Shown here in pieces: positions 20,660 through 49,296 of a DNA stretch of 64,000 nucleotides (its first letter is position 1; the number at the start of each line of letters is the position of its first letter). The DNA lies in the NCBI RefSeq assembly GCF_056746865.1, contig NZ_JBWKMP010000002.1; one strand, given 5' to 3'. Position numbers and translations under genes: made by a program. The notes beneath the pieces are model-generated. The model did not search any database and had not been told where the DNA came from. It was given only the letters and a program-made list of their open reading frames with translations. This stretch comes from a plasmid.

Positions 20660-21089
20660 GGTTATGACCTTTTTGCACTGAAAACCGACTTTTACGCATA
20701 TATGTAAACTTTACGCATAATGCGTCCATTTCATTGTTATACGTACAATTCTATCCTTTGTTTCAATCCTAAGCTAATGTTTGTTTACTTTTTTATGATT
20801 TTTTGTGAGCTTAACTTGCAGATGAGAGCTCAGACTCTCTAGTCCTTAATGCTCATTCTTTTTAAACCACGATTCTTGTCGACTTCTCTACGCTTTGACG
20901 TTATGAGCTCCATTAATGAATCTTAGCCTACCCTATTTCTTGCTTAAGAATTTAATTCTTCTCTCACCGGTGTGCTGATTTAAGTTTTCCTAACTGTGAA
21001 TCGTTGTCGTCAGTCCAGTCTAAAGATATGAGGTGTCATTTTCTTTGAGTAGGCCCACTACGAATTATGGGAGCAAAGTTAGCGACCTA

Positions 21090-24055
21090 GCCCAGAACTG
21101 AAACCCAACTTCAGGAGGCAACCCCAGTGTGGCGATTGGAGTTAATCTGCCAGCGGCTGACAGTGTCCTGGCTCCTTTCTCCGTGGCCCACCACGCCCTG
21201 ATTAAAATCCCCTGCCCGGTATTGTATGGAGCGAAAAAAGCCCGTGCATTTGTGTCGGCAGACCGGCATGAAGGAATATGACGTTAATCTGTATCAGCAG
21301 GCACTTTTCGCATGATGGGAGCAAGTGATAGCAACCCCGCCCAGAACGGAAGGCCAGCATCAGGACAAAACCCAAGTTTGGCGATTAAGGGGGTTAAATT
21401 TGCAAGCGGATGACAGTGCCCCAGCTGCTGCTCAGTCACACCACGCCCTGAGTAAATCTCTCGCCAGGTCTTGTTATGACCGAAAATAGCCCAAGCACTG
21501 GTGTCGGCAGACCGGCATACAGGAATATGACGTTAATCTGTATCAGCAGATACATTTCGCATTATGGGAGCAAGAGATAGCAACCCAGCCCAGAACTGAA
21601 GGCCAGCATGAGGACAGAACACCAGTTTGGCGATTAAGGGAGTTAAATATGCAAGCTGCTGATAGTGCCCCAGCTCCTGCTCAGTAACACCACGCCCTGA
21701 TAAAATCTCCTGCCCGGTAATGTAATGACCGAAAAAAGGCCGTGCACTGGTGTCGGCAGACCGGCACGCAGGAAAATGACGTTAATCTGTATTAACAGAC
21801 ACATTTCGCATTAGGGGAGCAAGTGATAGCCACCCAGCCCAGAACTGAAGGCCAGCATCAGGACAGTACCCCAGTTTGGCGATTAAGGGGGTTAAATCCG
21901 CCAGTGGCTGTAAGTGCCCGAGCGGTGTATAAGAAATATTTCCCGAAGGACAATCTTTCGCTCGTACGATGAATAAAGTGTTCAACCCGGGAGCGGGGAT
22001 CACTTACCTGCTTAGCCTAAATCTTACGTCATTCTTAAACGGAGTTTAAGCTTAATGGTCCTTAGAAAGTTAAAAGGACTACCCATAATGACGTCTTGAG
22101 ATGGCGAATAAAGGGTTTTAATCTGCCAGCGGCTCAACAGTGCCCCAGCTTCTGCTCAGTCACACCACGCCTGATTAAATCTCCCGCCAGGTCTTATTAT
22201 GACCGAAAATAGTCCCCGTGCACTAGAGTCGTAAGACCGGCATACAGGAATGAAGCTTAAATCTTTATCAGGTTGCAAGGTTCGCATCATGGGAGCAAGG
22301 GCCTTGAACTGTAGGTTAACATCAGAAAATCCCAGATTGGCGATTAAGGGGGTTAAATCTGACAGCGACTGAAAGTGCCTTCAGATGCTGCTCAGGTATA
22401 TTACAACCTGAAAAAATCAAGCGTCTGTTCATGCGAATATCGAAAAAAGCTATGCACCAGTTTCGGCAGACCGGCATGGAGTAATGAGACGTTAATCTGT
22501 ATCAGCTGGCGCATTTCGTATCATGGGAGCAAGTGTTAGCAACCCTGCCCAGGACGGAAGGACACTATCAGGACTGATCCCAGTTTGGAGATTAAGGGGG
22601 TTAAATCTGCCAGTGGCTGACAGAGCCTTCTGAGTCAGACATACTATGAACGATAAAATCACCCGTCCGTCCTTGTGATTATCGGAAAAAGCCATGCCCA
22701 GTCGGCAGATCGGTATGCAGTAATGTGACTTTAATCTGTATCAGCAGGCGCAATGGGAGCAAGTGTTAGCAACCGAGCCCAGGACGGAAGGACACTATCA
22801 GGACTGAACCCCAGTGTGGCGATTAAGGGGGTTAAATCTGCAAGCGGATAACAGTGCCCCAGCTGCTGCTCAGTCACACCACGCCCTGATTAAATCTCTC
22901 GCCAGGTCTTGTTAGGACCGAAAATAGCCCGAGCACTGGTGTCGGCAGACCGGCATACAGGAATACGACGTTAATTTGTATCAGCAGGTACATTTCGCAT
23001 TATGGGAGCAAGTGATAGCAACCCAGCTCAGAACTGAAGGCCTGCATGAGGACAGAACACCAGTTTGGCGATTAAGGGGGTTAAATCTGACAGCGGCTGA
23101 CAGTGCCTTCAGATGCTGCTCAGGCATACTACTCTCCCTGATATAATCTCCCATATGTTCTTGAGATTCGCCCATGCACCGGTGTCGGCAGACCGGTATG
23201 CAGTAATGTGATTTTAATCTGTATCAGCAGGCACATTTCGTATCATGGGAGTAAGTGTTAGCAAACCGAACCCCGCCCAGCACGGAAGGTCAATATCAGA
23301 CCAGAATCCCAGTTTGGCGATTAAGGGGGTTAAATCTGCAAGCTGCTGACAGTGCCCCAGCTTCTGCTCAGTCACACCACGCCCTGATAAAATCTCCTGC
23401 CCGGTAATGTGATGACCGAAAAAAGCCCGTGCACTGGTGTTGGCAGACCGGCACGCAGGAATATGACGTTAATCTGTATCAGCAGTTACATTTCGCATTA
23501 TGGGAGGAAGTGATAGCCACCCAGCCCAGAACTGAAGGCCAGCATCAGGACAGTACCCCAGTTTGGCGATTAAGGGGGTTAAATCCGGCAGCGGCAGTAA
23601 GTGCCCGTGCTGTGTTAAAGGAATATTTCCCTAAGGACAATCTTCCGATCGGCCTTTTGTATAAAGTGGTCACCCCGGGAGCGGGGATCACTTTACCTGC
23701 TTAGCCTAAATCTTACGTCAATCACTATCCGGAATTTTAGCTTAATGGTCCTGAGCAAGTTAAAAGGGGTACCCCTAATGACGTCCCCAGATGGCGATAA
23801 AGGAGTTAATTCCGCCTTCGGCTTACAGTGCCGCAGCTGCTGCTAAGGAACACCACGCCCTGATTAAATCTCCCGCCTGGCCTTGTGATGACCAAAAATT
23901 GTCCGTGCACTGGCGTCGTAAGACCGGCATACAGGAATGAGGCGTTAATCTTTATTAGGTGGAAGGATTCGCATCATGGGAGCAAGGGCCCTAGAACTGT
24001 AGGCTAACATTAGAAAATCACAGATTGGCGATAAAGGGGGTTAAATAAGTTAAAA
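21090..24055. repeat. Tandem array of ~240-bp direct repeats (about 12 units) with a higher-order ~1.7-kb periodicity, upstream of parA
   Basis: Recurring blocks such as CCAGTTTGGCGATTAAGGGGGTTAAATCTGC and GTGTCGGCAGACCGGCATACAGGAAT...GACGTTAATCTGTATCAGCAG reappear at about 240-250 bp spacing. Two divergent units containing TTAGCCTAAATCTTACGTCA...AGCTTAATGGTCC recur about 1.69 kb apart. Confidence 0.85.
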
Positions 24056-31283: not shown

Positions 31284-31769
31284 TTATTTTCTGATTAGAC
31301 TTGGTCTGGTTGTAACCCGGGCCTCGCGTTCCTTGAACAATTTATCCCGGACTATGTAAAGCTCTGTTTCTTCTCCCGGTTGCAGGTATGCTTTATCAAA
31401 TAAAGCACTTGCAATAACGCCTTCTGCCATACACTGCTGATCAGCAACGATTTGACCGTATGGTTTATCGTTTTTCACAAGAATTACATCAATAAGTTCA
31501 CGTGAGCCAACCAGTCTCTGACCGAGCTTTGCATACATATTAAAGTTACATGGGGACTGCTCTGACGCAGGAATACGAGAAAGTCGGTCCTGTTGTAAAC
31601 TGAATCCTGAAGGGACCTCACCAAGAGCCACAGGAGTCAATAAATCAATGATTCTTTGTTTATGATCGTCTTGTTTTGGATCCGATGGAGCCAGTTCTTC
31701 TGACTGGGAGCGGGCCAACATTTCCTCATAGTTTTGCTTATCCAATGAGGTTTCACGTTTGGCTTGCAT
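31284..31769 (-). CDS. Hypothetical protein within the tra operon
   Basis: 161-aa ORF, tightly packed between neighbouring tra genes; no motif. Confidence 0.4.
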   Translation of the reverse strand: MQAKRETSLDKQNYEEMLARSQSEELAPSDPKQDDHKQRIIDLLTPVALGEVPSGFSLQQDRLSRIPASEQSPCNFNMYAKLGQRLVGSRELIDVILVKNDKPYGQIVADQQCMAEGVIASALFDKAYLQPGEETELYIVRDKLFKEREARVTTRPSLIRK

Positions 31770-32559
31770 AGATGGGCTTAAAGATGTCAGTAACTGAAAT
31801 CATCGCACCGGGAACATCAAGCGGTACCAGGGTCAGGTTATAGGTCGATTCAGGTACCTGATCTTCCGACAACATAATCCCGATTGGTTTATCGGTATTA
31901 GTTGAAATAAAGACATCGCCACCATTAACAAATATGCTTGCCTCTTCAGCAGGGGTAGAAGTGCTGACAGAAGCATTCTTGAAGCTGGTCGATATTCTGT
32001 TTTGAAGTCCTCGTGAAACTGGCAGTACCACATTCCCACCAGGCGGCACATTTACACGCTGAACTTCTTTATATCGGTTACGAGCTTCGACATAAAGTTC
32101 ATCGGCTTTTGACGTGGCGGTCGCATTGGTTGCATTCTGCTGGGAAGAGGTACCTGTTGGTCTCCCATAGCTATCAATTGCACCAGAGCGGGTCTGTGCG
32201 TCAAATCCGGGGAGACTAGGATTATTTGATAATGCTCCAGTAATAGCGCTTACCGCAGGCGAAGCATTGCTGGCTGGGGAAAGTTGCACGGTAGGGAGAT
32301 CAGTTGTAGGTTTTTGTCCCTGCGCATTACCGGCTTCACTAAGGTTTGTTTGTGCACCTGACTGTTCAGAACCAGCTTGACCCGGAATAATGGCTTTTGC
32401 AGCTCCATTCTGAAATCCGTCAGCACCAACTGGCATTACAACCGGGTTATTAATTGTTGCTGGCAATTGGTATTCTTCAGCGATTACGCAGTTCGAAGTC
32501 GTGAGCATGATCAATGCGGTAATTGCGTTGAACCCTAAGCCCTTTTTTTTAATCATCAC
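31753..32559 (-). CDS. Exported protein, possibly TraK/VirB9-like
   Basis: 268-aa ORF with a signal peptide (LGFNAITALIMLTTSNCVIA); position between the TraE-like and TraB-like genes matches F-type order (traA-L-E-K-B-V-C). Assignment by synteny. Confidence 0.45.
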   Translation of the reverse strand: MMIKKKGLGFNAITALIMLTTSNCVIAEEYQLPATINNPVVMPVGADGFQNGAAKAIIPGQAGSEQSGAQTNLSEAGNAQGQKPTTDLPTVQLSPASNASPAVSAITGALSNNPSLPGFDAQTRSGAIDSYGRPTGTSSQQNATNATATSKADELYVEARNRYKEVQRVNVPPGGNVVLPVSRGLQNRISTSFKNASVSTSTPAEEASIFVNGGDVFISTNTDKPIGIMLSEDQVPESTYNLTLVPLDVPGAMISVTDIFKPIYASQT

Positions 32560-35225: not shown

Positions 35226-36101
35226 TCAACCTTGTTTGGCGAGGGCCAGCTTAGGGCTTCTTTTGAAGATCTGAAATTGTATGTCGCGACCTTTCTTAAC
35301 TTCTTGATAATCGAGATATCCGATAGATTCAAGTTCCCGCATTGCTTTACGAATTATCTGGTTTTGCGTACGAATAGGGGTTGTAAGAAGCAACCTTTCC
35401 CTCAACCGTTTCATATTAACGAACAACGTACCAGCTGGCATTGCTTCAAAATAAATATAGAGAGATTGCGCAGCTTCTTTTTTAGCCAAAATGTATAGAA
35501 CCTGAAGGCTTAACAATGTCTTATGGTCGTAACGATACAGTTCCCACATAGAAGGATCCCCAACCAACTCAACAGTATCGCTTTTTGGATCAATCATAGC
35601 CTTCTGCACCAGATGCGTTACTGTGAACCGACCACTCCGAGAGTCTGAGAAGGCAAGCACTACCGATGCAAGGTTCATTAATGACTCTTTAAAGCGCGCA
35701 CGAGTTCGTTTGTTGATGTTTGTTGAACTGATACCACACATCTTCGCAAACTCGTTAAAAGTCAGGGTAATCTTCTCGGAAGTAAAACCATATTTACTGA
35801 AAGCCATGATGATCCCGAGCCAGCACTTAAAGTCGGTAGACATAGATAGTTTGACACCAGTTATCTTGATGTCGTCATAACCCTCCGATCTTGCAATTTC
35901 CATACACGAAAGCTCATCAGAGGCATCAACTTCAAAGTTTCGGTCGCGGTTTTCTTTTGTGCCGACAGGGGTAAATACACTCAATCTCAACAGGGCCACG
36001 GGCTGAACCGACTTGGACGAGTTAGGCGTCAGTTGATAAGTCTTACCTGATTCATTACTGGTTACGTCAAAAGGATGGATTAACTCGTTGTTTTTAATCA
36101 T
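35226..36101 (-). CDS. Iteron-type replication initiator (Rep_3/RepE-like family)
   Basis: 291-aa ORF flanked on both sides by iterons; the size and iteron context fit a theta-replication initiator, and it has a frameshifted paralog at 49297..50383. Confidence 0.7.
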   Translation of the reverse strand: MIKNNELIHPFDVTSNESGKTYQLTPNSSKSVQPVALLRLSVFTPVGTKENRDRNFEVDASDELSCMEIARSEGYDDIKITGVKLSMSTDFKCWLGIIMAFSKYGFTSEKITLTFNEFAKMCGISSTNINKRTRARFKESLMNLASVVLAFSDSRSGRFTVTHLVQKAMIDPKSDTVELVGDPSMWELYRYDHKTLLSLQVLYILAKKEAAQSLYIYFEAMPAGTLFVNMKRLRERLLLTTPIRTQNQIIRKAMRELESIGYLDYQEVKKGRDIQFQIFKRSPKLALAKQG

Positions 36102-36159
36102 TAACTTAACTCGTCGGTGATAAGATTTTCATTTGGCAAACTGTTTATAACATATTCTT

Positions 36160-36265
36160 GCAAATGCTTTTTACGCATTAACCTAAATGCCATAAGCATT
36201 CCAGTAAATGCCTTCCTTATTCATTCAAATGCTTTTCGCATGCATCCGAATGCCGGATCCTTTCA
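36160..36265. repeat. Second small iteron group upstream of the rep gene (likely operator/autoregulation site)
   Basis: GCAAATGCTTTTTACGCAT, TAAATGCCATAAGCATTCC, GTAAATGCC and CATTCAAATGCTTTTCGCATGCATCCGAATGCC resemble the 34.5-35.1 kb motif. Confidence 0.6.
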
Positions 36266-36577
36266 TAAAGTCACTATAATCAATGAGTTAAAGATGCCGT
36301 GATCTTTACTTGAACTCTATTGATCTTTAGTGATCTAAAGAATTGATCTATCCTGTTGAAAACAATGATAAGTCCATATAAAACAAGGAATAGCGCTCCT
36401 TTAACAATATCTACAGATCGCAAACGGAAATGAACGAGGGTCTACTATCATTGTTTTATTCAAGACAGTTTTTATTTTAATTTTATTAAGCAAATTTTTT
36501 GAGTTTACCTTTTAGATGTATCAGCCCTATTTGGCAAATTTGAGGTTCATGTATCATGTAGTAAACAGGAGGAAGAT

Positions 36578-37633
36578 ATGAACAACAGCAAACATACAGT
36601 CATTGAAGTGGATACTAATCTAGTTGAAATTGAAAAGGGATTTAATCCCCGAGAGGCGGTAATCGGAGATTTGTGTTACGAACAAGAACCTGTCAAGTCG
36701 ATGATTGTGTCAATCAAACAAGCCTTTAAGGAAGGAAGGCAGGTTGATATGATCAAGGTCGTAAAAAGAAAAGGTAAATATTTAGTTCGTCAAGGTCATA
36801 CTCGTTTTCATGGCTTAAAATTAGCAATTTCTGAAGGTGCTAATATTCCAAAATTATCTGTTATCCTAATCGATTATAAAAACGAAATTGAAGAATACCT
36901 TGAGAACCTCGATGGTAACAGAAGCAATGGGCTAAATCCGGTTGGGCAAGCTCATGCATTAGCTCATGCTGTTAGTCTCGGGTATTCGGTTGAAGAACTA
37001 GCAATGCGATATCAACGATCAACTACCGCAATTCGTAATATGCTAAAAATCCTTGATATGCCATTAGAGCTTCAACGTTTGATTAGCCTAAATCTAATCA
37101 AAAAAACGCTCGCCATTGAAATAATGTTAAAATATTCCAACGATCACAAAATGGTTTTAAAACATATAGAAGGTTTCTTACCTGGCGTTAAGAATATTGA
37201 GACTACAACGAGCAAAATTGTAGGCATACCTGAACACAATGCAGCTGGAGCAGGACCAGACACCTTAAATAAAGGCGGACCAGAAAAGAAAAATTCGGCA
37301 GTCACTCGTAAGACTTTGGGTATTAAGCGCCTCTCGCATAAGAAAACAGAACGGCTAAAATCTGAATTTCTTGAGCTTGTGGAAAGTACACATACGGAAT
37401 CTATAACGAATACTCAAACAGAACTAAAATTTGGTAGAGATAGTGCACACTTGTTCAAAAATGTTAATAGTAATAATGTAATATTTTCCAATGATGGTGT
37501 TCAAATAATCTTGAATGATGAAAAGCTAAATATTTTATTGTCTTTACTTAACGACGAAAATACAGCAATCATTGTTTCTAAACCAAAATTAGAAGAGCTT
37601 CTGGAAATTCGAGATCTCCTTAAGGAATATTAA
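36578..37633 (+). CDS. ParB/sulfiredoxin-like N-terminal-domain protein (KorB/ParB-like DNA-binding protein or nuclease)
   Basis: 351-aa ORF with GFNPRE and VRQGHTRFHGLKLA motifs (resembling the ParB-domain GxxR box) and a downstream TAIRNMLKI helix-turn-helix-like segment; paralog of 40844..42007. Confidence 0.5.
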   Translation: MNNSKHTVIEVDTNLVEIEKGFNPREAVIGDLCYEQEPVKSMIVSIKQAFKEGRQVDMIKVVKRKGKYLVRQGHTRFHGLKLAISEGANIPKLSVILIDYKNEIEEYLENLDGNRSNGLNPVGQAHALAHAVSLGYSVEELAMRYQRSTTAIRNMLKILDMPLELQRLISLNLIKKTLAIEIMLKYSNDHKMVLKHIEGFLPGVKNIETTTSKIVGIPEHNAAGAGPDTLNKGGPEKKNSAVTRKTLGIKRLSHKKTERLKSEFLELVESTHTESITNTQTELKFGRDSAHLFKNVNSNNVIFSNDGVQIILNDEKLNILLSLLNDENTAIIVSKPKLEELLEIRDLLKEY

Positions 37634-37650
37634 AAACGAGGATTAGTTGA

Positions 37651-37851
37651 GTGATTAAACCTATAAAGCTGACTCTTATCGATAATTATAGTGATTTGCT
37701 TCTAACTCATGAAGTCCTTAAACGCAACATGGAAGAGTTAGAACACGGTAAACGTTTTGATCAATTTCCTGAAGGGCATGACCACTATGAAAAAACTGTG
37801 AAAGAAGCTGTAGCAATCGTAGAGGCACGTTTGGAGGTGTTTCGAAAATGA
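37651..37851 (+). CDS. Small hypothetical protein
   Basis: 66-aa ORF, stop overlapping the next gene start; no motif. Confidence 0.3.
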   Translation: MIKPIKLTLIDNYSDLLLTHEVLKRNMEELEHGKRFDQFPEGHDHYEKTVKEAVAIVEARLEVFRK

Positions 37852-38564
37852 AATCTCTTTTCTTTACTCTTGATGGTCATATGGTACCAGCCTCAGTGAA
37901 TGTATCACTTAACGGAGATGGAAATTATTATGCACCTATCGAAAGAGAATGTAACGAATGTGCGGGCACAGGCCACAAAGGGGCTGATTTATGTGAAAAG
38001 TGTCATGGGGTACAAACAGTTGGACCCATTATTGAAAAATTAGTGGCACTAGAGCCAATTACCTTTCTCGATAACATTCCGGAACTGCGTGTTAACCCAA
38101 CACTCGAAGCATGGAAATCCAGAAACCACGTCCTTATTGAGAAAGCAAAAAAGGCTAACACTAAGTTTTCTAATAGTATATTGGCGCAATTAGACAATAA
38201 CCGTTTCTTGACAGAACGCCAGCTGGATTGTTTCTTTACAACTTTTGATGTGATGTTGTCTGAAACTCCGGAAAATGAACAAGAAATTTTAAAACATAGC
38301 TACAATATCGGCCAGGTCATAAGCATTGAACTAACATTTACTGAAGTCAGGGCCGCGTACGCAAAAAGTAAAGGGAGTTATTTTTTTACATTTACTGGTA
38401 AAGTTAGAAATGACGGGATCGCTTTAACGGCCGATAAACAGGATCACATTTTATTGGGTGAACGTTATCATTTGACTGGAAAAGTCAGAAAATTCTATGA
38501 ATTTGATTCGAAAAATTATGCTGCAATAACAGTTTTTAAGTTAAATAAACTCCAAGACAGTTAA
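37848..38564 (+). CDS. Zinc-finger-like protein of unknown function
   Basis: 238-aa ORF with a DnaJ-type zinc-knuckle-like cluster CNECAGTGHKGADLCEKCHG. Confidence 0.45.
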   Translation: MKSLFFTLDGHMVPASVNVSLNGDGNYYAPIERECNECAGTGHKGADLCEKCHGVQTVGPIIEKLVALEPITFLDNIPELRVNPTLEAWKSRNHVLIEKAKKANTKFSNSILAQLDNNRFLTERQLDCFFTTFDVMLSETPENEQEILKHSYNIGQVISIELTFTEVRAAYAKSKGSYFFTFTGKVRNDGIALTADKQDHILLGERYHLTGKVRKFYEFDSKNYAAITVFKLNKLQDS

Positions 38565-38795
38565 ATGTTTTTGCTGCTTAAATATAGAGCCAAGACTTTA
38601 ACTGTCGTTAGGACTCACTCACGTAATATTGTTGCTTACGCAATGGGTTTTATCCCTCATAAAGATCTGCGAGTATAAATCTTTTACATTTAAATTCCCC
38701 TCTATCAGAACCTTTTCTATTGTAAAAAAATGATAATCTTATTAATTATAATTTTAATTTTTTGTATACCAATACCATACAGTTAAGGCTAAAAG

Positions 38796-39653
38796 GTGAT
38801 GATGGAGATGGACTTTAAAATGCACAATGATCTGGGTCTCGGTTTCATTTGTAAAAATGCAAGAACATCGTCAAAGCCAACGTTAAGAAAAGTTACTTTT
38901 CCGGTAAGCGCATATGAAACGTCTAAGCTTTCTTTAACCGGTTTTCAATGCCCCACAGCCTGCCGTTTTCCTTTTTTTGTGCTATGCATGATAATCCATA
39001 ACCATCTTTCGTCTGCATGCCCTATCACCCAAAATGAATGTTCAAATCATATCTCGCAATTTTCTATCGACATTAAAGTACAAGATTGGCTTAGCCGTTC
39101 AAGAGTAGCGTTTATTGATTTCCATAATCTTAGAAATACAGATAAAACCACTTTAATAACAGTGAACCATCTTGAAGCTTTACTTACTGTTATGTCGACT
39201 ACTCTTGTCGCTTATGTTCCATATTCAAAAAAGAGACTAAACTTTAGCTTTCTAAACTCATTCACTTTGTCTAAAACTTCTCAAAGTTACACATTAACTT
39301 TCCCGGTAGTTCTCAGTCCGCTTTTAGATGCTCTTGGCGACTTCATTCAGGAATGCATAACCGAAAAATTGTTAAAACGACGAAATTCGAATTTCATGGT
39401 TTACGAGTATCTTAAACGTTCAGGCCAGAGCTCTCATAAAGTGGAGGACATTAATAACGACTTACAGCTTAAAAGTCTAAATATAAGACTTATGAGCGTC
39501 CTTACTGGCCTTTCTCAGCAAGGACTCATTTCATTTATTTGCGAAGGAAAGAGGGGCGACCGGAGAATAGAAGAGCTTCAGTTTATACCTTATGTTCAAC
39601 GAACTTACCCTGAGGTATTAACTTTTGAGGAATGGATTAGCCTAGTTGATTAG
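38796..39653 (+). CDS. Hypothetical protein
   Basis: 285-aa ORF; no recognisable motif. Confidence 0.35.
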   Translation: MMMEMDFKMHNDLGLGFICKNARTSSKPTLRKVTFPVSAYETSKLSLTGFQCPTACRFPFFVLCMIIHNHLSSACPITQNECSNHISQFSIDIKVQDWLSRSRVAFIDFHNLRNTDKTTLITVNHLEALLTVMSTTLVAYVPYSKKRLNFSFLNSFTLSKTSQSYTLTFPVVLSPLLDALGDFIQECITEKLLKRRNSNFMVYEYLKRSGQSSHKVEDINNDLQLKSLNIRLMSVLTGLSQQGLISFICEGKRGDRRIEELQFIPYVQRTYPEVLTFEEWISLVD

Positions 39654-39661
39654 AATTTACT

Positions 39662-40495
39662 CTATTTCAGCACGGCCAGTATTTCTGTTTCCGTTTTCCG
39701 TGTATTCGGCTTACTTCCTACGGATCGGTAAGCGCTGAGTCTGTGTATGACGAATCCACGCTCTTCATAGAGGCCCAAAGTGAATGATGTCAGGCTATTT
39801 GATATCGCAACAGCAGCGCCTTTTCTGTGAGCGTCAACGAGCATATTTGCTAACAGCACGTGGTCGCTTTGGCTGAACGGTTTACCATCGTAACTGACAA
39901 AACTAGTTTTGCTTGTTTTGTCATATGGCGGATCACAGTAAATCTGATCTCCTTCACCGGTTGCGGCCAGAGTCTCCTCAAAACCAGCGGTGATCAGTTC
40001 AATACCTGAAAGACGAAATGAAAGGTAGTCTATTTTATTGAGGTCAAGCTTCAGTTCTGTATGTTTCCCCCACGGCACTGAATAGATTCTTTCTGAGTTA
40101 TAGCGGCACATACCGTTATAGCCCAGGCGATTCAGGGAGTAAAACAAAGCCGCTCTTTGAAGCGATTGACCAGAAATACAGGTTTTGTTGAAACGGTCCC
40201 TCATCTCATAGTAGTCCTTTTCGACAAAGGTTTTATCCGCCAAGTTTTGGACCTGATTTATAAAGTTAGTTTTCTGTCTTTGAATAGTCCTGTATAGGTT
40301 GATCAAGTCTGGATTGCTATCTGCAAGCAATGCATTTTGTGCAAACATGTTCAGAAAAACGGCACCACCGCCTATAAAGGGTTCTACCCACCGGCAACTA
40401 TGATCGTGTGGGTAGTGATGGCTGATGAAAGGCATCAGTTTCGTTTTTCCACCAGCCCATTTGATTATCGGCATGTGTCTGAGATGTCGAGTCAA
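39662..40495 (-). CDS. dam: Orphan DNA adenine methyltransferase, Dam family
   Basis: 277-aa ORF with the N-terminal KWAGGK and FIGGGAVF SAM-binding motifs and the catalytic DPPY motif (IYCDPPYDKT); no adjacent restriction endonuclease candidate. Confidence 0.8.
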   Translation of the reverse strand: MTRHLRHMPIIKWAGGKTKLMPFISHHYPHDHSCRWVEPFIGGGAVFLNMFAQNALLADSNPDLINLYRTIQRQKTNFINQVQNLADKTFVEKDYYEMRDRFNKTCISGQSLQRAALFYSLNRLGYNGMCRYNSERIYSVPWGKHTELKLDLNKIDYLSFRLSGIELITAGFEETLAATGEGDQIYCDPPYDKTSKTSFVSYDGKPFSQSDHVLLANMLVDAHRKGAAVAISNSLTSFTLGLYEERGFVIHRLSAYRSVGSKPNTRKTETEILAVLK

Positions 40496-40843
40496 AGTGT
40501 CTATACCTGAGAGAGAAATTTAGGTGCTGGTATCGTACCTAACCACGGGCTTTAACTAATAACTTAGGGAGCAAAAAAAAGTTGTTTAAGACGCACAGTT
40601 TTGACTTTCAGCATTTCGGATTTATAAGATTTTTCCTCACTTATACCTGAACTTTATGTTTTGGATTTATGTATTTGTTTATGAAGCGATTTTTATGCCA
40701 TCACAAGTAATGGGGAGCCACCTTTTTTTGTAAAAAATCAGAATAGGCTCAAAAAGTACCTTTTTTGCGAAAAATTATGAATTTTTTTTTCGGTAGTATC
40801 CCCGCTACGCAGAAAGTAAGCAGAAAAATGTAACGGAGCCCCT

Positions 40844-42007
40844 ATGAGTGTTTTACTGACAGAACCTACACAGCAAGCTAATGACAAGGTCTTTAAAACG
40901 GCCCATGTTGCCTTTTCAGTAGTTACTGGCACAGGCCGTTACGTCACTGGGCTTAAAGAGTTCCGTGATGCAAACCCTGAACTTTGTACTGAAGTAAGTG
41001 ACCAGAAAGCATGGGCTATCCACCCTTCAGTAATTCAGGTCACGCCAGGCTTCAACTCCCGCGAAATGGGAATGGGTGACGATTACTATAAGCTCCCTGA
41101 GGTTGAAGAACACATCTACAACATCAAGAATGCCTACATTCGAGGTGACTATGTAGACCCTATCCGAGTACGTGTCATTGATGGGGTACCTTTTGTTCGC
41201 CAGGGGCACTGCCGTTTAAAAGCCGCAATGATGGCATGTGATGAAGATCATGACATCACAATCCTTTGCGTTGAGATTAAAGAAGATGAAATTGGCTGTG
41301 AGCTCGCGACCATTGATGGTAACCGTGGTCTTGCGCTTTCTCCTGTTGCGCTTGGCGAGTCCTATCGTCGCCTACATTCTCTTGCTGGCTGGTCACTCGA
41401 ACGAATTGCTCAACGTGAAAATAAAAGCCCGACGACCATCAGTTCTCTTATCCGCCTGACAACCTGTTCTGTTGTTATCAAGAAATGGATTCATGCTGAC
41501 GCTATTTCGTATGTTAACGTGCTTTCACTGATCGATGAGCTCGGCGAAACAGAAGCAATTTCACGTATCAAGAAGATGATCGCAGAACTTGAGCAGGCCG
41601 ATGCGAATGGCATCACGGTGAAAAAAACCCAACATGGTCAGGTACGAGTCAGACCTTCAGACTTCAAGCCAGCACGGATTCCGCCGGTTATTGCCACAAA
41701 AGCCGTAGAAGGCGTCAAACTCATCACCACCAGCTTATTACAGAAACTGGGGGATATTGAATTGCCGGAGCTGACAGATTCAAGTGCTGACGAAGAAATC
41801 AACATTACGTTGAACCGCAGTACTCTGGAGATGTTGAGAAATCTTTCAAAAGAGATCACAGAATCAGAGAACAAGCAGCTTCGCCGTGCGGAGAATCGTC
41901 AGGCAAAACTTAATGGTGAGAAGCCAAAATACCCACGTAAAAAAAATGCTAAGAAGGCAGGGGAAGAGACCGATCAGGATACTGACCCACAGCCGGACGC
42001 AGAATAA
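40844..42007 (+). CDS. ParB/sulfiredoxin-like N-terminal-domain protein, paralog of 36578..37633, with a charged C-terminal tail
   Basis: 387-aa ORF with GFNSRE and VRQGHCRLKAA motifs and a PTTISSLIRLT segment colinear with the paralog; Lys/Glu/Asp-rich C-terminus. Confidence 0.5.
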   Translation: MSVLLTEPTQQANDKVFKTAHVAFSVVTGTGRYVTGLKEFRDANPELCTEVSDQKAWAIHPSVIQVTPGFNSREMGMGDDYYKLPEVEEHIYNIKNAYIRGDYVDPIRVRVIDGVPFVRQGHCRLKAAMMACDEDHDITILCVEIKEDEIGCELATIDGNRGLALSPVALGESYRRLHSLAGWSLERIAQRENKSPTTISSLIRLTTCSVVIKKWIHADAISYVNVLSLIDELGETEAISRIKKMIAELEQADANGITVKKTQHGQVRVRPSDFKPARIPPVIATKAVEGVKLITTSLLQKLGDIELPELTDSSADEEINITLNRSTLEMLRNLSKEITESENKQLRRAENRQAKLNGEKPKYPRKKNAKKAGEETDQDTDPQPDAE

Positions 42008-42095: not shown

Positions 42096-42124
42096 TGCCC
42101 CGTTTATGCGGGGCTTTTTTTTTG
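42096..42124 (+). terminator. Rho-independent terminator
   Basis: Hairpin GCCCCG-(loop)-GCGGGGC followed by a run of about 10 T, downstream of the 40844..42007 gene. Confidence 0.7.
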
Positions 42125-42254: not shown

Positions 42255-43346
42255 ATGTCATCTCTTGATTCTGAAGCTAAACCCGATAATGCAGGTCACA
42301 GCGTACTGGCTTTAACAACCTCTCATAGCCTGGTGGTTAGCTCTCCTGAAACATTTCTTCCAGATATGCGCAAAGAGCTCGGCATTATCGCGGATCTTGT
42401 TGAGTCCTATAATGATGAACTCTGCTTGTTGAAACTCATGGCTGTCCAGTTCAAAACCCACAATCACCAGAAACTTTATTCTTATCTCTCAGGCTACAAC
42501 CACAGCATCTCAGAAGCGGATGCTTTGTTCGCAGAAAACGCTCTGAGATCAGAATACTGGAAATGCGTTATGGCACTCACTGATGTTTTGCCTATCATGT
42601 CGGATGCCAAACGTAACGAATGGGATAAGCAGTTTACGGCCGACCGTTATATTATGCCGCCTCAGGTGATCCCTGATTTCACAGCTGACGCTGTAGTGGG
42701 CACAGTCGTTGCTTTGCTTAATGACCGCAATCAATTTATTAAAGAAAGGGTTTACGACGTCTTCCAGTCTCTGAGCCGCAGTCACAAGACAAACAAAGCT
42801 TTTGGGTTCTCCACCCGCATGATCACTACCGGAGTTTGCGAGCCGTCTAAATACCCCTGGCAGAAATTAAGGGTGGATTTTAAAGAGTCTGGCATTTCAC
42901 CGCTGAGCGAGCTCCGCGTTATATGCGCATTCTTCCGTGGCGAACAGGTGAAGGCGATCCATAACACCAAATCATTGGTTGAGGCGTTGGTCGAACATGA
43001 GGGGTTCAGAAAATGGATCTGCATCGATGGCAACAGTATTCGTTTCAGGGTTTACAAAAATGGATCAATGCATATTGACGTCCACCCTGATATCGCCGAG
43101 CGGCTTAACAATATTTTATCAGCTATCGTACCGCTGGCATTACCTGCCGACCGTATGGCTCATAGCAAGAAATCTTTGGAGGCATTCCCTGTACTTAAGC
43201 AGTGCATCGACTTTGATACCCGGATGCAGCTTTCTGAACTGATGTTTAAAAATGACGGGGACAATAAATGGAGTTGCTGGACATCTTTAGGGTCTCTAGC
43301 CAACGCAAATCTTCGAGTGTTGCCGCTGACACCCTTCGGTTCTTAG
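42255..43346 (+). CDS. Hypothetical protein; first gene of a duplicated two-gene module (paralog of 57097..57861)
   Basis: 363-aa ORF; N-terminal region shows similarity by eye to 57097..57861 (SPETFLPDMRKELGIIADLVE versus SPEKHRMFMADLGRVVAE). Followed by a methyltransferase-like gene, as in the other copy. Confidence 0.45.
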   Translation: MSSLDSEAKPDNAGHSVLALTTSHSLVVSSPETFLPDMRKELGIIADLVESYNDELCLLKLMAVQFKTHNHQKLYSYLSGYNHSISEADALFAENALRSEYWKCVMALTDVLPIMSDAKRNEWDKQFTADRYIMPPQVIPDFTADAVVGTVVALLNDRNQFIKERVYDVFQSLSRSHKTNKAFGFSTRMITTGVCEPSKYPWQKLRVDFKESGISPLSELRVICAFFRGEQVKAIHNTKSLVEALVEHEGFRKWICIDGNSIRFRVYKNGSMHIDVHPDIAERLNNILSAIVPLALPADRMAHSKKSLEAFPVLKQCIDFDTRMQLSELMFKNDGDNKWSCWTSLGSLANANLRVLPLTPFGS

Positions 43347-43946
43347 GGGCAACAGTAACAAAATACGATGTGACATTTTCCTATGATCCGTGTGAGGTTA
43401 TTCGTTACATCGGCCAGATAGGGGAGATGCCTGATATTGTATCGCATCAGTTTTACCCTTCATCTTGCCGAATCAGCGAATATGATATCTTCCCTGCTTG
43501 GTGCAGGGGAAGGGGATACCCTCCTGGAGCCTAATATTGGCCATGCGGATTTGCTTAAATCATTCCCTGCCGGTGTGATCGTTACTGGCATCGAGCTTGA
43601 TACTTTGAATTGCCTTATCTCCCGGGCTAAGGGATACGATACGACAGAAGCTGACTTCCTCACATGGTCTAAGTCTAATCAACAGAAGAAGTTTGATTAT
43701 GTCGTGATGAACCCACCTTTTGCCGATAACCGGGCCAGGCTGCATCTCCAGGCAGCTGCATCTCATCTCGCAGCCGGGGGATCTCTAGCAGCCGTTCTTC
43801 CATTATCTCTTCAGGGGCTCGATAACCTTTTGGGGGAAGAATTCCGGACGGAATGGATGGACGTTTTTGAGAACGAGTTTGAAAACACGACCGTTTCGGT
43901 TCGCATCCTGTACGCCGAACGTATTCAACAAGAGGAAGTCCTATGA
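43268..43946 (+). pseudogene. Small NPPF-motif SAM-dependent methyltransferase, apparently frameshifted (paralog of 56255..57079)
   Basis: Two overlapping frames (43268..43534 and 43437..43946) together align with the intact paralog: ...QFYP in the first frame, then LLGAGEGDTLLEP (motif I-like) and DYVVMNPPFADN (motif IV) in the second. The frame switch lies near 43455-43470. Confidence 0.5.
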
Positions 43947-48479: not shown

Positions 48480-49100
48480 CAAAGGTGCCAGAGAGTACAA
48501 AGAAGATCCCGGTACGCTGTAGGCCGCATGGTTACTGGGCTGGAGCATTGTCACTGACAACAGTAGCGACATAAGTGACAACGGGAGTGACTTAAAAGAC
48601 AATGGTAGAGACTATTTCGACGTTGGTAATGATTTTAAGTGACAATGGTAGTGAGGTTAGACTTAAACTTCCACTGTGAGGTAAGGTGACTCGCATTATT
48701 TAAATAAATCATTACTTTCAATTACTTGCGACACGAGTCTGCATGTATGCTTCTATTTCTCAAAAATTTATCCACCGAAAATGCCTGTGGCTGTGATTTA
48801 GCTTTGACGACAGTTTTTATCAGGGAGGCAAGTTGAGACCTGTATAAGAACTAAGCATTTATTTATCCCCATTTTCCACAAGGTAGTTCCAATAATTAGT
48901 ACCTTAGTGTTCCTGATAGATCAAAAGAGATCCCCGCTGCCTCCAGGCCAGACGGCACAAGGCCTGAGACGTGATCAGTGACAACAGTAGTGATTATTTT
49001 GACATTAGTAGTGATTATTATAACGTTGGTAATGAGTTTTTTGACATCAGTAGTGATCAGAGCGACAATAGTAGTGACTTTTCATTAGATCTTTTTAACT
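48480..49100. repeat. Degenerate iteron-like repeats (GACAAYRGTAGTGA core) upstream of the second rep gene
   Basis: Motifs such as CTGACAACAGTAGCGACATAAGTGACAACGGGAGTGAC, AAGTGACAATGGTAGTGAGG, GTGACAACAGTAGTGATTATTTTGACATTAGTAGTGATTATTATAACGTTGGTAATGAG and GCGACAATAGTAGTGACT share a core with the array downstream of the gene. Confidence 0.7.
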
Positions 49101-49296
49101 TGATCTGATCCGTTGTTGATAAGAGTTGCAGGTCATTGTATGCAAAGAGTTTTTGCCAAGTTTTAATGAGTGGAGTCGTTTTTTTAGGTAGAACTTATGC
49201 ACAGATATGGATCATCACAATGATCCATCCAGTGACATAGAGTTCGCTGGGGCTTACTATTCACCAATCTGTTTACACATTCAGTGATAACTTATT

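Follow-up and report, generated by a model that had tools for sequence, protein, structure and literature searches.

Two genes for ParB-like proteins lie on either side of a Dam-family methylase gene in the 64,000-nucleotide stretch of plasmid DNA analysed here (the window), which is IncHI2 plasmid backbone. The locus raises the question of what two ParB-like proteins do where neither has a ParA beside it, and of what the methylase between them contributes.

Gene content and location of the module

From position 36578 on, the gene order was ParB-like 1, three unknown genes, the Dam-family methylase, ParB-like 2 and a DUF4942 gene. A replication initiator gene formed the left boundary:

35226..36101, minus strand: RepHI1A-type replication initiator, RepB family (annotation in identical plasmids; R27 orthologue R0036, repHIA)
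36150..36349, unstranded: RepHI1A origin elements, with iterons at about 36150-36260 and a TGATCT repeat cluster (repeat families D2, D5 and D7)
36578..37633, plus strand: ParB-like 1, 351 aa, R27 R0037 orthologue; ParB/Srx-type N domain, ParB HTH and a distinct alpha/beta C-terminal domain
37651..37851, plus strand: 66-aa ORF, R0038 orthologue; conserved in IncHI1, without a match in family searches
37848..38564, plus strand: zinc-finger-like protein, R0039 orthologue; CxxCxGxG, DnaJ-type finger (Pfam DnaJ_CXXCXGXG, E 1.3e-3)
38820..39653, plus strand: 277-aa protein, R0040 orthologue; convergent with the Dam gene across an 8-bp gap, perfect palindrome copy at +69
39662..40474, minus strand: Dam-family N6-adenine DNA methyltransferase, R0041 orthologue (TIGR00571, alignment to E. 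coli Dam)
40844..42007, plus strand: ParB-like 2, 387 aa, R27 R0042 orthologue; ParB/Srx-type N domain, ParB HTH and a helical C-terminal region
42097..42114, plus strand: terminator-like hairpin GCCCCGTTTATGCGGGGC followed by a T-run, 3' of ParB-like 2
42255..43946, plus strand: DUF4942 / N6-adenine methyltransferase gene with an NPPF motif, R0043 orthologue; reading frame broken here

The zinc-finger-like and unknown proteins that the initial annotation had placed between the paralogues were recovered; the database name of 37848..38564 is 'zinc finger-like domain-containing protein'. The hairpin and T-run suggest that ParB-like 2 is monocistronic.

The genes make up a module that is conserved in the backbone of H-type conjugative plasmids (MOBH relaxase, F-type mating-pair), among them IncHI resistance plasmids. 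The module corresponds to R0037-R0043 of the IncHI1 plasmid R27, and its gene order was also kept in more distant H-type plasmids (L014-L016). The divergent Dam/ParB-like 2 pair was preserved in distant lineages. In IncHI1B-type and Photorhabdus plasmids, ParB-like 2 was retained adjoining Tra2/Ig-like genes, with ParB-like 1 and Dam absent nearby. The module lies between the RepHI1A origin and Ig-like/Tra2 genes; from IncHI2 to R27 the 36150..36349 block has hardly changed, in contrast to the diverged DNA on either side.

Homology and fold of the two ParB-like proteins

ParB-like 1 and ParB-like 2 are ancient paralogues of an orphan ParB subfamily with differing C-terminal domains (30% identity over 174 aa, BLASTP E 4e-22). 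The motifs quoted in the initial annotation were found at both loci (GFNPRE and GFNSRE, VRQGHTRF and VRQGHCRL, with DGNR common to both). ParB-like 2 also has a conserved N-terminal extension and a basic tail; the N-terminal peptide common to its orthologues, GR..L(K/R)(E/Q)F, keeps Gly-Arg in all of them. Both proteins matched phrog_1033 'ParB-like partition protein' (E 1.9e-25 and 3.5e-28) and Pfam HTH_ParB (E 1.4e-5 and 1.7e-4 for ParB-like 1 and 2 respectively). Their TIGR00180 parB_part scores (33.9 and 32.5 bits) were under the cut-off of 58.45. The Pfam ParBc N-terminal model matched neither even at E<=10, which counts against the clamp reading preferred below. Profile searches against the PDB gave E-values of 1e-13 to 1e-9 for Spo0J, ParB and Noc. 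AlphaFold2 models of both proteins (pLDDT 77-80) matched ParB, Noc and KorB structures with a Foldseek probability of 1.0 (E 1e-7 to 1e-5). The top TM-score match of both was the KorB-KorA-DNA complex 8qa9 (TM 0.64 on target for ParB-like 1), and the AFDB structural neighbours were ParB, Srx or KorB-domain proteins throughout. The GxxR P-motif was present as GH(T/C)R, and no family member deviates at its G or R. Neither GERRxR nor ENxxR, the canonical motifs, is kept, box III being DGN(R/Q) in the profile alignment. This departure, and the absence of the E-N pair altogether from ParB-like 2, also count against the preferred reading. The earlier proposal of regulators or NTP-dependent clamps is supported by the KorB, Noc and ParB matches of the predicted folds.

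The two proteins are not the partition proteins of this plasmid, because neither adjoins a ParA, as the initial annotation had indicated (parAB lies at 18405-20659 and parMR at 13610-15297), a separate real ParB is encoded, and repeats of 249 bp form a 2.5-kb array beside parA. GSRRR is the motif of the real ParB, and its BLAST similarity to the ParB-like proteins reached only E 0.55. The ParB-like proteins probably regulate or organise plasmid DNA instead of partitioning it.

Several known systems bear on this role. KorB of the IncP plasmid RK2, a ParB-family CTPase clamp and global repressor, is likewise plasmid-encoded with a ParB fold, N domain and HTH. It binds and hydrolyses CTP with a non-canonical P-motif, GARRYR, compared to GH(T/C)R here. 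The KorB operator likewise spans 13 bp, a palindrome whose central base is free; it occurs at 12 scattered sites, and some of these are far from any promoter. However, KorB is encoded beside the ParA homologue IncC and doubles as a partition ParB. Its profile match had an E-value of just 4e-6, compared to 1e-13 for Spo0J, and the box III E-N pair is lost in ParB-like 2. No KorB-domain match was obtained in Pfam or NCBIfam, and no KorA-like partner was identified.

BisD of ICEclc, a CTP clamp that activates transfer-competence genes, is another orphan of the ParB-like group and comes from a conjugative element of MOBH type. Its GxxR box, GNTR, is near the GHTR/GHCR of the ParB-like proteins, and it binds and hydrolyses CTP. 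Its bisS loading sites are intragenic palindromes with an odd central base; sites within genes are normal for ParB-like clamps. BisD differs in its size (550 aa compared to 351 and 387 aa), its separate activation domain, its BisC partner, its retained ENELR and its two 23-bp bisS sites only, compared to a 13-bp candidate site in about 50 copies per plasmid here. No BisC-like partner was found.

Noc of Bacillus subtilis is likewise a ParB paralogue without its own ParA, CTP-dependent and with many dispersed palindromic NBS, and its structures were among the top sequence and fold matches. However, it is chromosomal, keeps GERR and ENLQR, and tethers DNA to the membrane by an N-terminal amphipathic helix, of which none was evident in the ParB-like proteins; these scored 21 bits against the NCBIfam Noc cut-off of 315.

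The closest relative outside H-type plasmids was the IncC orphan 'ParB' WP_000268394 (34% identity to ParB-like 1, residues 19-195). It also lies apart from the partition pair of its plasmid (ParA and a KorB-domain protein), and a DNA methyltransferase gene follows about 1 kb downstream, but it is a single copy of 312 aa. No published characterisation of it was found.

A 13-bp palindrome and its candidate binders

The palindrome AAAAGTNACTTTT was strongly enriched, with 10 perfect sites in the window. R27 has 26 perfect sites and 54 in total, compared to 0.02 expected, with none in the 10-kb bin at 130-140 kb (tcu genes) and none listed at about 74-83 kb (Tn10). At least 13 of the 20 window sites had positional orthologues in R27, and 11 of the 20 were intergenic or start-proximal (24% expected, p 0.002). 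None was present in the 14.5 kb examined around WP_000268394. Two sites lie in the module:

38888..38900, unstranded: perfect palindrome AAAAGTTACTTTT; R27 counterpart at 43239, same codon offset (+68/69)
40752..40764, unstranded: variant palindrome AAAAGTACCTTTT, 92 nt upstream of ParB-like 2, within a conserved block

R27 has the identical AAAAGTACCTTTT variant at -96 of R0042 (45095), and perfect or near-perfect copies preceded the ParB-like 2 orthologue in L006, L007, L008 and L014; in L016 a good copy directly upstream was absent. The initial annotation had connected the ParB-like proteins with the motif AAAGTTACTTT; this is plausible, and the support, which is circumstantial, concerns ParB-like 2 only (upstream copy in five of six lineages examined).

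In published R27 microarrays, R0042 ranked with the most strongly represented plasmid transcripts: its signal was 6132 a.u. at 25 C and 2278 at 37 C, and it reached 20561 in the htdA mutant. The authors listed it among the genes induced in all conjugation-promoting conditions. R0040 was 18.6-fold up in the htdA mutant, where the module was derepressed along with the transfer genes. This derepression is not specific to the module, since it affected 139 of the 181 expressed R27 genes.

We favour, at roughly even probability, the reading that these are orphan ParB proteins of the KorB, BisD and Noc kind and that ParB-like 2 may load at AAAAGTNACTTTT. They would be site-specific DNA binders with a putative nucleotide switch in the N domain: their dimers would first engage a short palindrome and from there spread or slide along plasmid DNA, and the spreading clamps would regulate or organise plasmid DNA as with KorB, BisD and Noc. 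ParB-like 2 would be the core member, since all lineages examined have kept it, its transcription in R27 is very high, it is induced along with conjugation and it has an upstream palindrome; AAAAGTNACTTTT would then serve as its operator or as the site where it loads. ParB-like 1, whose gene adjoins the RepHI1A origin, probably recognises another site. Every regulatory consequence is one that we infer.

The palindrome may instead be owned by another IncHI transfer regulator (TrhR/TrhY, HtdK, HtdF or an unrecognised protein), the ParB-like proteins binding other sites. The copy upstream of ParB-like 2 would then make that gene merely one regulon member, and ParB-like 1 might act at the adjoining RepHI1A origin. 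We consider this possible, with tentative support. HtdA, HtdF, HtdK, TrhR and TrhY occur in the same plasmid lineages and are alternative candidate binders, and HtdA and HtdK homologues co-occur with the palindrome in Klebsiella IncHI1B-type plasmids. Copies of the palindrome occur upstream of or inside the AC, AN and Z transfer operons and Ig-like genes; in the htdA mutant the R27 orthologues of these were up 8-28-fold. Moreover, the ParB-like 2 recognition helix differs among lineages (KSPTTISSLIRL, VSAVTVTNYIRL, ISEMAVRQIISL) while the palindrome is invariant, which a strict pairing of the two does not predict. However, the F-operon promoter, the standard TrhR/TrhY-HtdA reporter (R27 110222-110834), is without the palindrome, and a perfect copy lies at -87 of the R operon, which is reported not to depend on HtdA. 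HtdA is described as working at the protein level, and a DNA-binding domain was recognised in none of TrhR, TrhY, HtdA, HtdF and HtdK. The 54 dispersed R27 sites, many intragenic, also look more like clamp-loading or nucleoid-like sites than a classical activator box.

The spread of palindrome sites across the entire backbone would also suit auxiliary centromere binders, in which an orphan ParB at dispersed parS-like sites aids ParA or ParM/ParR in trans and positions or condenses a plasmid of more than 200 kb. The ParB fold and HTH, the name 'partition protein' for R0042 in the original R27 annotation and the ParB-like 2 Gly-Arg peptide, which loosely recalls ParA-stimulating peptides, point the same way. 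This explanation is unlikely: no ParA adjoins, parAB and parMR with their own repeat regions are already present, the TIGR00180 scores are far under the cut-off, and R27 parA and parB were not co-regulated with R0042 (fold change 1.0 compared to 3.4).

The methylase genes

The Dam ORF, which is intact, scored 228 bits with TIGR00571 (cut-off 114.85) and aligned over its full length to the E. coli Dam structures 2g1p/4gol (E 2e-39). In common with E. coli Dam and the DpnII methylase M.DpnIIA, it keeps the AdoMet motif FxGxG (EPFIGGGAVF), DPPY and the DNA-recognition loop NRxGYNGxCRYN...VPxG. It represents a separate plasmid lineage, because it reached only 169 bits, compared to 441 at the E. 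coli Dam equivalog cut-off. The ORF proposed earlier (39662..40495) is present, but the database start is the ATG at 40474 (270 aa) instead of the TTG at 40495. The initial annotation had called it an orphan Dam methyltransferase; the family assignment was confirmed. Orphan status is plausible but provisional, since the 277-aa protein encoded convergently beside it (38820-39653) could be placed in no family (zero matches in Pfam, NCBIfam, PADLOC and PDB). The 14 homologues of this protein were all unnamed, the named sources being Salmonella, Enterobacter and Photorhabdus plasmid-size contigs. PADLOC scored the Type II and orphan methylase models about equally on Dam.

The two GATC-richest 200-bp windows of the 64 kb lie at the two replication origins; at the RepHI1A origin, GATC occurs at 36256, 36301, 36322, 36332 and 36345. 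GATC is the most likely target of the Dam homologue, the clusters at both origins included. The usual enterobacterial hosts are already Dam+, so a plasmid-borne Dam brings no obvious benefit, which counts against our preferred reading.

The initial annotation framed the locus as an establishment or anti-restriction island and pointed to leading regions. In such an island methylases would shield plasmid DNA, and the ParB-like proteins would work soon after entry into the recipient, as HerB (YfjB) of F or leading-region ParB-methylase proteins do. The two adenine methylase genes, the conserved Dam/ParB-like 2 pair, the methyltransferase gene near the IncC homologue and derepression with the transfer genes in R27 are consistent with it. 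HerB, a precedent for ParB-like leading-region proteins, is likewise encoded on a conjugative plasmid, with a CTP-binding domain, HTH and non-partition role. However, HerB is zygotically induced, is larger, carries an additional dimerisation module and follows no simple sequence code when it binds the host chromosome. The R27 module (40.9-48.3 kb) lies more than 60 kb in both directions from oriT (mobI-trhR intergenic region, about 108.2-108.9 kb), so it is no leading region and cannot enter the recipient early. Family profile and PADLOC searches recognised no anti-restriction gene (no ArdA, KlcA, PsiB or Ssb-type gene) inside the module, IncHI1B-type and Photorhabdus plasmids retain ParB-like 2 without a nearby methylase, and the Dam+ hosts argue here too. 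The island framing is therefore rather improbable.

ParB/Srx-type enzymes (nuclease, nickase, as proposed earlier, Osa-like NTPase or kinase-like activity) instead of DNA clamps are very improbable: GH(C/T)R resembles the GxHR / GCHR of non-partition ParB/Srx members, and sulfiredoxin and free serine kinase were among the weak N-domain fold matches, but these were far weaker (E 1e-3 to 0.2) than those to ParB, Noc and KorB, the best structural neighbours are DNA clamps, and the complete ParB HTH and long C-terminal region of both paralogues are clamp architecture.

In the window the DUF4942 gene lacks 1 nt near 43301 and has 1 nt inserted at 43485. Its intact 563-aa version in other plasmids matched phrog_6263 'DNA methyltransferase' (E 1.4e-111) and Pfam DUF4942 and MTS.

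The ParB-like module in the IncHI backbone

The segment from ParB-like 1 to the DUF4942 gene (the module; R0037 to R0043 in R27, the IncHI1 reference plasmid) is a known but uncharacterised part of the plasmid backbone. A total of 660 plasmid records matched the 8.2 kb around it at 99% identity or higher, and 458 more did so at 95-99%. These records were typed IncHI2A, with a MOBH relaxase and F-type mating-pair genes, and came from Escherichia, Salmonella, Enterobacter and Klebsiella; the module is present on more than 1,000 sequenced plasmids.

Features of the window, in order
Tra2 region, trhN to trhA, first in the order of the window
13610-15297, parMR, partition module
18405-20659, parAB, partition module
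RepHI1A-type replicon: rep gene (minus strand), then origin repeats
36578-37633 (plus strand), ParB-like 1, 351 aa (module begins)
66-aa ORF
Zinc-finger-like protein
277-aa ORF of unknown function
Dam-family methylase (minus strand), database start ATG at 40474
40844-42007 (plus strand), ParB-like 2, 387 aa
DUF4942 protein (module ends)
Ig-like protein genes and RepHI2

A terminator-like hairpin lies 3' of ParB-like 2, before the DUF4942 gene. The gene order was identical in IncHI1 plasmids, including R27. The divergent Dam/ParB-like 2 pair was also kept in a metagenomic contig and in a 221-kb plasmid-like contig, one of which had the full order from ParB-like 1 through Dam and ParB-like 2 to the Ig-like gene. 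IncHI1B-type Klebsiella plasmids and a Photorhabdus plasmid carried ParB-like 2 only, between Tra2 and the Ig-like gene. This distribution indicates that the two genes are ancient paralogues, with no recent duplication, and that ParB-like 2 is the universal member. The subfamily around both proteins is large (467 clusters at 50% identity, E<1e-30).

The initial annotation had suggested that this region is an establishment or anti-restriction island, with reference to plasmid leading regions. In R27 the module lies at 40.9-48.3 kb, far from oriT (the mobI-trhR intergenic region, approximately 108.2-108.9 kb), and the proposal therefore lacks positional support. No anti-restriction gene was recognised inside the module, and PADLOC gave no match for either ParB-like protein or for the unknown ORFs of the module.

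Compared with near-identical plasmids, the window has gained or lost single bases in several genes of the backbone, which disrupts their reading frames: the DUF4942 gene (43298-43485), htdA (12753-13206), parB (18405-19409), trhK (31284-32556) and an ORF at 16605-17442. In the DUF4942 gene, one base is missing near 43301 and one is inserted at 43485, which leads to in-frame stops. The number and pattern of these indels suggest assembly or sequencing errors, not real pseudogenes.

Two orphan ParB-family proteins

Both ParB-like ORFs were found where the initial annotation had placed them, and their homology extends over the N-terminal ~175 residues (30% identity, E 4e-22). The motifs quoted for them occur in both proteins; the family alignments show little or no variation in GFN(P/S)R, in the G and R of GH(T/C)R and in the Asn of DGN. 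ParB-like 1 and ParB-like 2 matched phrog_1033, 'ParB-like partition protein' (E 1.9e-25 and 3.5e-28 respectively), and Pfam HTH_ParB (PF17762), while their scores against the NCBIfam partition-ParB model TIGR00180 (33.9 and 32.5 bits) were under the curated cut-off of 58.45. The N domain of both is divergent at the sequence level: Pfam ParBc (PF02195) had no match in either protein even when hits were listed to E<=10. For Pfam, this is the outcome that the initial annotation had named as refuting a ParB or sulfiredoxin domain; all the other evidence overrides it. The N-domain fold assignment is based on PHROGs, the sub-threshold TIGR00180 scores, the profile search against the PDB and structure prediction.

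A joint profile of both proteins matched Spo0J, ParB and Noc in the PDB at E 1e-13 to 1e-9 and KorB at 4e-6, and the profile alignment and fold matches covered both the N and the helix-turn-helix domains of Spo0J, Noc and ParB. AlphaFold2 models had a pLDDT of ~90 over the N domain, with blocks of ~85-95 over the N domain and helix-turn-helix. Structure prediction, suggested in the initial annotation as a check, bore out the ParB/Srx relationship: Foldseek matched ParB, Noc and KorB with probability 1.0 and sulfiredoxin more weakly, the best TM-scores on the target (0.60-0.64) were to the KorB-KorA-DNA complex 8qa9, and the AFDB neighbours were all ParB, Srx or KorB-domain proteins. Both proteins are thus predicted to have an N-terminal domain of the ParB/Srx alpha/beta fold (AlphaFold2 and Foldseek) followed by a ParB-type helix-turn-helix (HTH_ParB, profile and fold matches), the arrangement of the clamp family.

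The neighbours of the ParB-like genes are rep, small unknown ORFs, dam and the DUF4942 methylase gene; parA lies 16-20 kb off with its own parB, whose product (GSRRR box) showed no BLAST-level kinship to them (E 0.55). Membership of the type Ia ParABS class was rejected, with no adjacent ParA gene and TIGR00180 scores under the cut-off. We conclude with high confidence that these are orphan ParB-family DNA-binding proteins, not partition proteins. The domain architecture and the nearest structures argue for proteins of the KorB, BisD or Noc kind over a partition ParB; they probably have a nucleotide-binding N domain and work like those proteins. The R27 annotation had already noted the ParB similarity of R0042, the ParB-like 2 orthologue ('partition protein'), and some copies in current databases are named 'DNA-binding protein' or 'ParB/RepB/Spo0J family'. 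A literature search found no direct study of these proteins; for R0037, R0041, R0042, R0043 and the motif sequence described below, it returned nothing relevant beyond the R27 microarray paper (PMC7366339).

The GxxR box, singled out in the initial annotation for CTP binding, is present in a minimal form, GH(T/C)R with invariant G and R, but the canonical E and first R of GERRxR are replaced. This motif aligns opposite GERR of Spo0J and Noc, and its Arg lines up with the residue that B. subtilis ParB (R80), KorB (R117) and BisD (R95) need in order to bind CTP. CTP is bound by BisD with GNTR and by KorB with GARRYR, so variation in the P-motif is tolerated. Box III reads ENLDGNR in ParB-like 1 and ATIDGNR, with no E-N pair, in ParB-like 2. 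In the profile alignment it is DGN(R/Q), and D-G-N-R-G stands opposite E-N-L-Q-R; in the pairwise alignment EN stands opposite EN with a gap. Across the family, only the Asn of DGN is near-invariant. Given the minimal P-motif and the divergent box III, nucleotide binding appears plausible but not assured, and hydrolysis by ParB-like 2 appears doubtful from its residues.

KorB, BisD and HerB, all orphan ParB-family CTP switches, have lately been shown to act as long-range regulators on other mobile elements. Unlike KorB, the ParB-like proteins had no KorB-domain match in Pfam or NCBIfam, and the IncHI module has no ParA or KorA-like gene; neither KorB-specific domains nor a KorA/IncC partner were thus recognised. 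The IncC orphan 'ParB', of the same subfamily, lies ~1 kb upstream of a DNA methyltransferase gene, apart from the ParA/KorB-domain pair.

ParB-like 2 orthologues have a confidently modelled N-terminal extension (window 40844-41020, residues 20-60) with a conserved peptide, GR(Y/F/L)(V/I)..L(K/R)(E/Q)F..N...C, which is absent from ParB-like 1. That it serves for interaction with a partner, such as a ParA-type ATPase, is only a guess.

The 13-bp palindrome and its candidate binder

The motif picked out in the initial annotation, the 13-bp palindrome AAAAGTNACTTTT, is real, with 10 perfect and approximately 10 near-perfect copies in the window. Matches with at most one mismatch gave 42 strand-hits (2.9 expected), and it was the only multi-copy palindrome in the window. 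Across the whole of R27 there were 54 sites; 26 were perfect, where 0.02 were expected. The 10-kb bin at 130-140 kb (tcu genes) had no site, and none were listed at ~74-83 kb, where Tn10 lies. At least 13 of the 20 window sites had positional orthologues in R27, including intragenic sites at identical codon offsets, between plasmids whose proteins are only ~58-75% identical and whose intergenic DNA around the sites has diverged. Eleven of the 20 lay between genes or no more than 30 nt from a start codon (24% expected, p 0.002).

Location of the motif
Perfect copies in the window: 4893, 12333, 12527, 28956, 34319, 35104, 38888, 45500, 45565, 63479
Sites upstream of genes: trhA, htdT, trhP, trhO and an Ig-like gene
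Sites at junctions and starts: htdF/htdK junction, trhK/htdO junction, start of trhU
Upstream of ParB-like 2, window: -92
Upstream of ParB-like 2, R27: -96 (same one-base variant, conserved block)
Upstream of ParB-like 2, other compared plasmids or contigs: L006, -118; L007, immediately upstream; L008 (IncHI1B-type Klebsiella plasmid), -120; L014, -131

IncHI1B-type plasmids were likewise rich in the motif (10-13 sites per 15-21 kb), and copies occurred in the Photorhabdus plasmid and in the distant contigs; the IncC region examined had no copy. A copy preceded ParB-like 2 in five lineages, while another compared sequence, L016, had no good copy directly upstream. A simple promoter scan around ParB-like 2 returned one weak -35/-10 match (40601-40630), and promoter-like matches there were no commoner than in shuffled sequence. 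No publication describing the palindrome was found in the literature search. Like the 13-bp KorB operator, the candidate ParB-like 2 site is formally a 13-bp palindrome and, as with the bisS loading sites of BisD, which lie inside genes, the motif sites are often intragenic.

We propose that ParB-like 2 binds the palindrome and put the chance of this at somewhat below even; the protein would then act, in transfer-permissive conditions, on genes of transfer and the backbone or on how the plasmid DNA is organised. Another conserved regulator of IncHI plasmids may be the binder: in the phyletic-pattern test, HtdA and HtdK homologues also occurred in Klebsiella IncHI1B-type plasmids, and the recognition helix of ParB-like 2 varies between lineages whereas the motif does not. 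However, the F-operon promoter of R27 has no motif copy, and a perfect one lies at -87 of the HtdA-independent R operon, with another copy in the oriT region; the motif therefore does not simply track the TrhR/TrhY-HtdA circuit. A search for DNA-binding or FlhDC/BisC-like domains gave no informative match in TrhR, TrhY, HtdA, HtdF, HtdK or the 160-aa ORF of the AC operon. ParB-like 1 was ruled out as a required binder because motif-rich IncHI1B-type plasmids lack it, and canonical ParB or ParR was rejected, as neither the 249-bp array beside parA nor the region upstream of parM in R27 has a copy. The motif is too weak for an RNA hairpin or terminator (5-6 bp A/U stem, 1-3 nt loop) and occurs in both orientations relative to transcription.

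Expression of the ParB-like 2 orthologue was high in the published R27 microarrays (PMC7366339): R0042 gave 6132 units at 25 °C, 2278 at 37 °C and 20561 in the htdA (derepressed) mutant, the last among the highest plasmid signals. Few other genes were derepressed at both temperatures in that mutant, and the authors singled R0042 out as induced in all conjugation-promoting conditions (PMC7366339). At 25 °C, the htdA mutant showed a 4- to 19-fold rise for R0037 to R0041 and a rise of only 1.5-fold for R0043; 139 of the 181 expressed genes rose in the mutant, so the rise of the module is not specific (PMC7366339).

Several other repeats and rearrangements were observed. Downstream of repHI1A, R27 (L012) has three copies of a 43-bp repeat (38881, 38924 and 38967), each with the near-motif AAAAGGCACTTTT; at the corresponding place in the IncHI2 window there is just one motif copy, a perfect one (35104). 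In pD90-1 (17815-19043 of L002, approximately window 35100), an IS3-family element has inserted between trhA and rep of RepHI1A and adjoins the conserved motif copy downstream of rep; the plasmid is otherwise identical. The unannotated gap between parA and trhC (21064-23606) holds a 2.5-kb tandem array of ~249-bp units (10.4 copies, 68% matches); this array is probably where the centromere or incompatibility region of Par1 lies. In L008, 12 copies of a different palindrome, ACAACNNNGTTGT, flank parAB (15125-16583 and 19431-19565) and are probably the centromere of that plasmid; they coexist with 10 perfect copies of AAAAGTNACTTTT, indicating that the two site families are separate.

Dam, the replication origins and a possible nucleotide-switch system

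The minus-strand gene between the ParB-like genes encodes a Dam-family methylase, as first annotated: TIGR00571 scored 228.1 bits (cut-off 114.85), the alignment to E. coli Dam (E 2e-39) and DpnM structures was full-length, and EPFIGGGAVF (FxGxG), CDPPY and the recognition-loop residues were conserved. The DUF4942 protein carries an NPPF motif and is an N6-adenine methyltransferase (phrog_6263, E 1e-111; Pfam DUF4942 and MTS). No endonuclease family was detected in any neighbour of Dam, which may be an orphan methylase. A restriction partner was looked for in the convergent 277-aa ORF (8-bp gap to Dam), which co-occurs with Dam in IncHI1 and IncHI2. This ORF matched nothing in Pfam, NCBIfam, PADLOC or the PDB, and its 14 homologues are all unnamed; to judge from these searches, it is an uncharacterised protein.

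GATC sites are not enriched overall in the window (224 vs. ~239 expected). Of the 200-bp stretches across the 64 kb, the two richest in GATC, with six sites each, lie at the two origins: 36241-36440 beside the RepHI1A-type rep gene, with four TGATCT repeats nearly invariant between IncHI1 and IncHI2, and 49041-49240 just upstream of repHI2. This placement suggests Dam/SeqA-type control of both replicons. At oriC and P1 oriR, GATC methylation is tied to origin function or sequestration; by analogy, the same dependence probably holds here, and a plasmid-borne Dam beside the origin would secure GATC methylation there.

These elements can be read jointly as a KorB/BisD-like nucleotide-switch system on IncHI-type plasmids, with ParB-like 2 on the palindromes, ParB-like 1 at the RepHI1A origin and Dam servicing its GATC cluster; as a whole, we consider this reading rather unlikely. 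Abundant ParB-like 2 would load at approximately 50 dispersed, positionally conserved AAAAGTNACTTTT sites, many at gene junctions of transfer operons, and would slide or spread from them. In this way it might coordinate transfer and backbone gene expression or organise plasmid DNA for transfer. ParB-like 1, the older paralogue, would act at the adjacent RepHI1A origin, whose GATC cluster would be serviced by the plasmid's own Dam. The proposal that this is a previously undescribed KorB/BisD-like system of IncHI plasmids is held just as tentatively. Orphan ParB-like regulators are already a known kind; new, if true, would be the pairing of one with a palindrome that occurs plasmid-wide and is conserved in position.

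Among the main vehicles of multidrug resistance in Salmonella Typhi, and of mcr-1, mcr-9 and other resistance genes in Enterobacterales, are IncHI1 and IncHI2 plasmids; how their temperature-dependent conjugation is controlled is only partly understood. We know of no defined DNA sites for the TrhR/TrhY-HtdA/H-NS circuit. Binding of the plasmid-wide palindrome by the abundant, conjugation-induced R0042-type protein would provide the cis/trans layer that is missing from IncHI regulation, and would be a third, independent case of ParB clamps repurposed for gene control. If that protein is not the binder, the module would still define a set of conserved, uncharacterised backbone genes.

Two further observations concern methylase genes. 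R27 R0153, also annotated 'partition protein', is by number the neighbour of the cytosine methylase gene R0154 (139473-142567 of the R27 record L013, in the 139-143 kb region); the 307-aa ORF that is likely its product had no PHROG match. R0153 and R0154 both showed induction at 25 °C, and the region has a perfect motif copy (140892). A 'methyltransferase' gene (253 aa; 56255-57016, minus strand) is located among the Ig-like protein genes, bringing the methyltransferase genes in the window to at least three.
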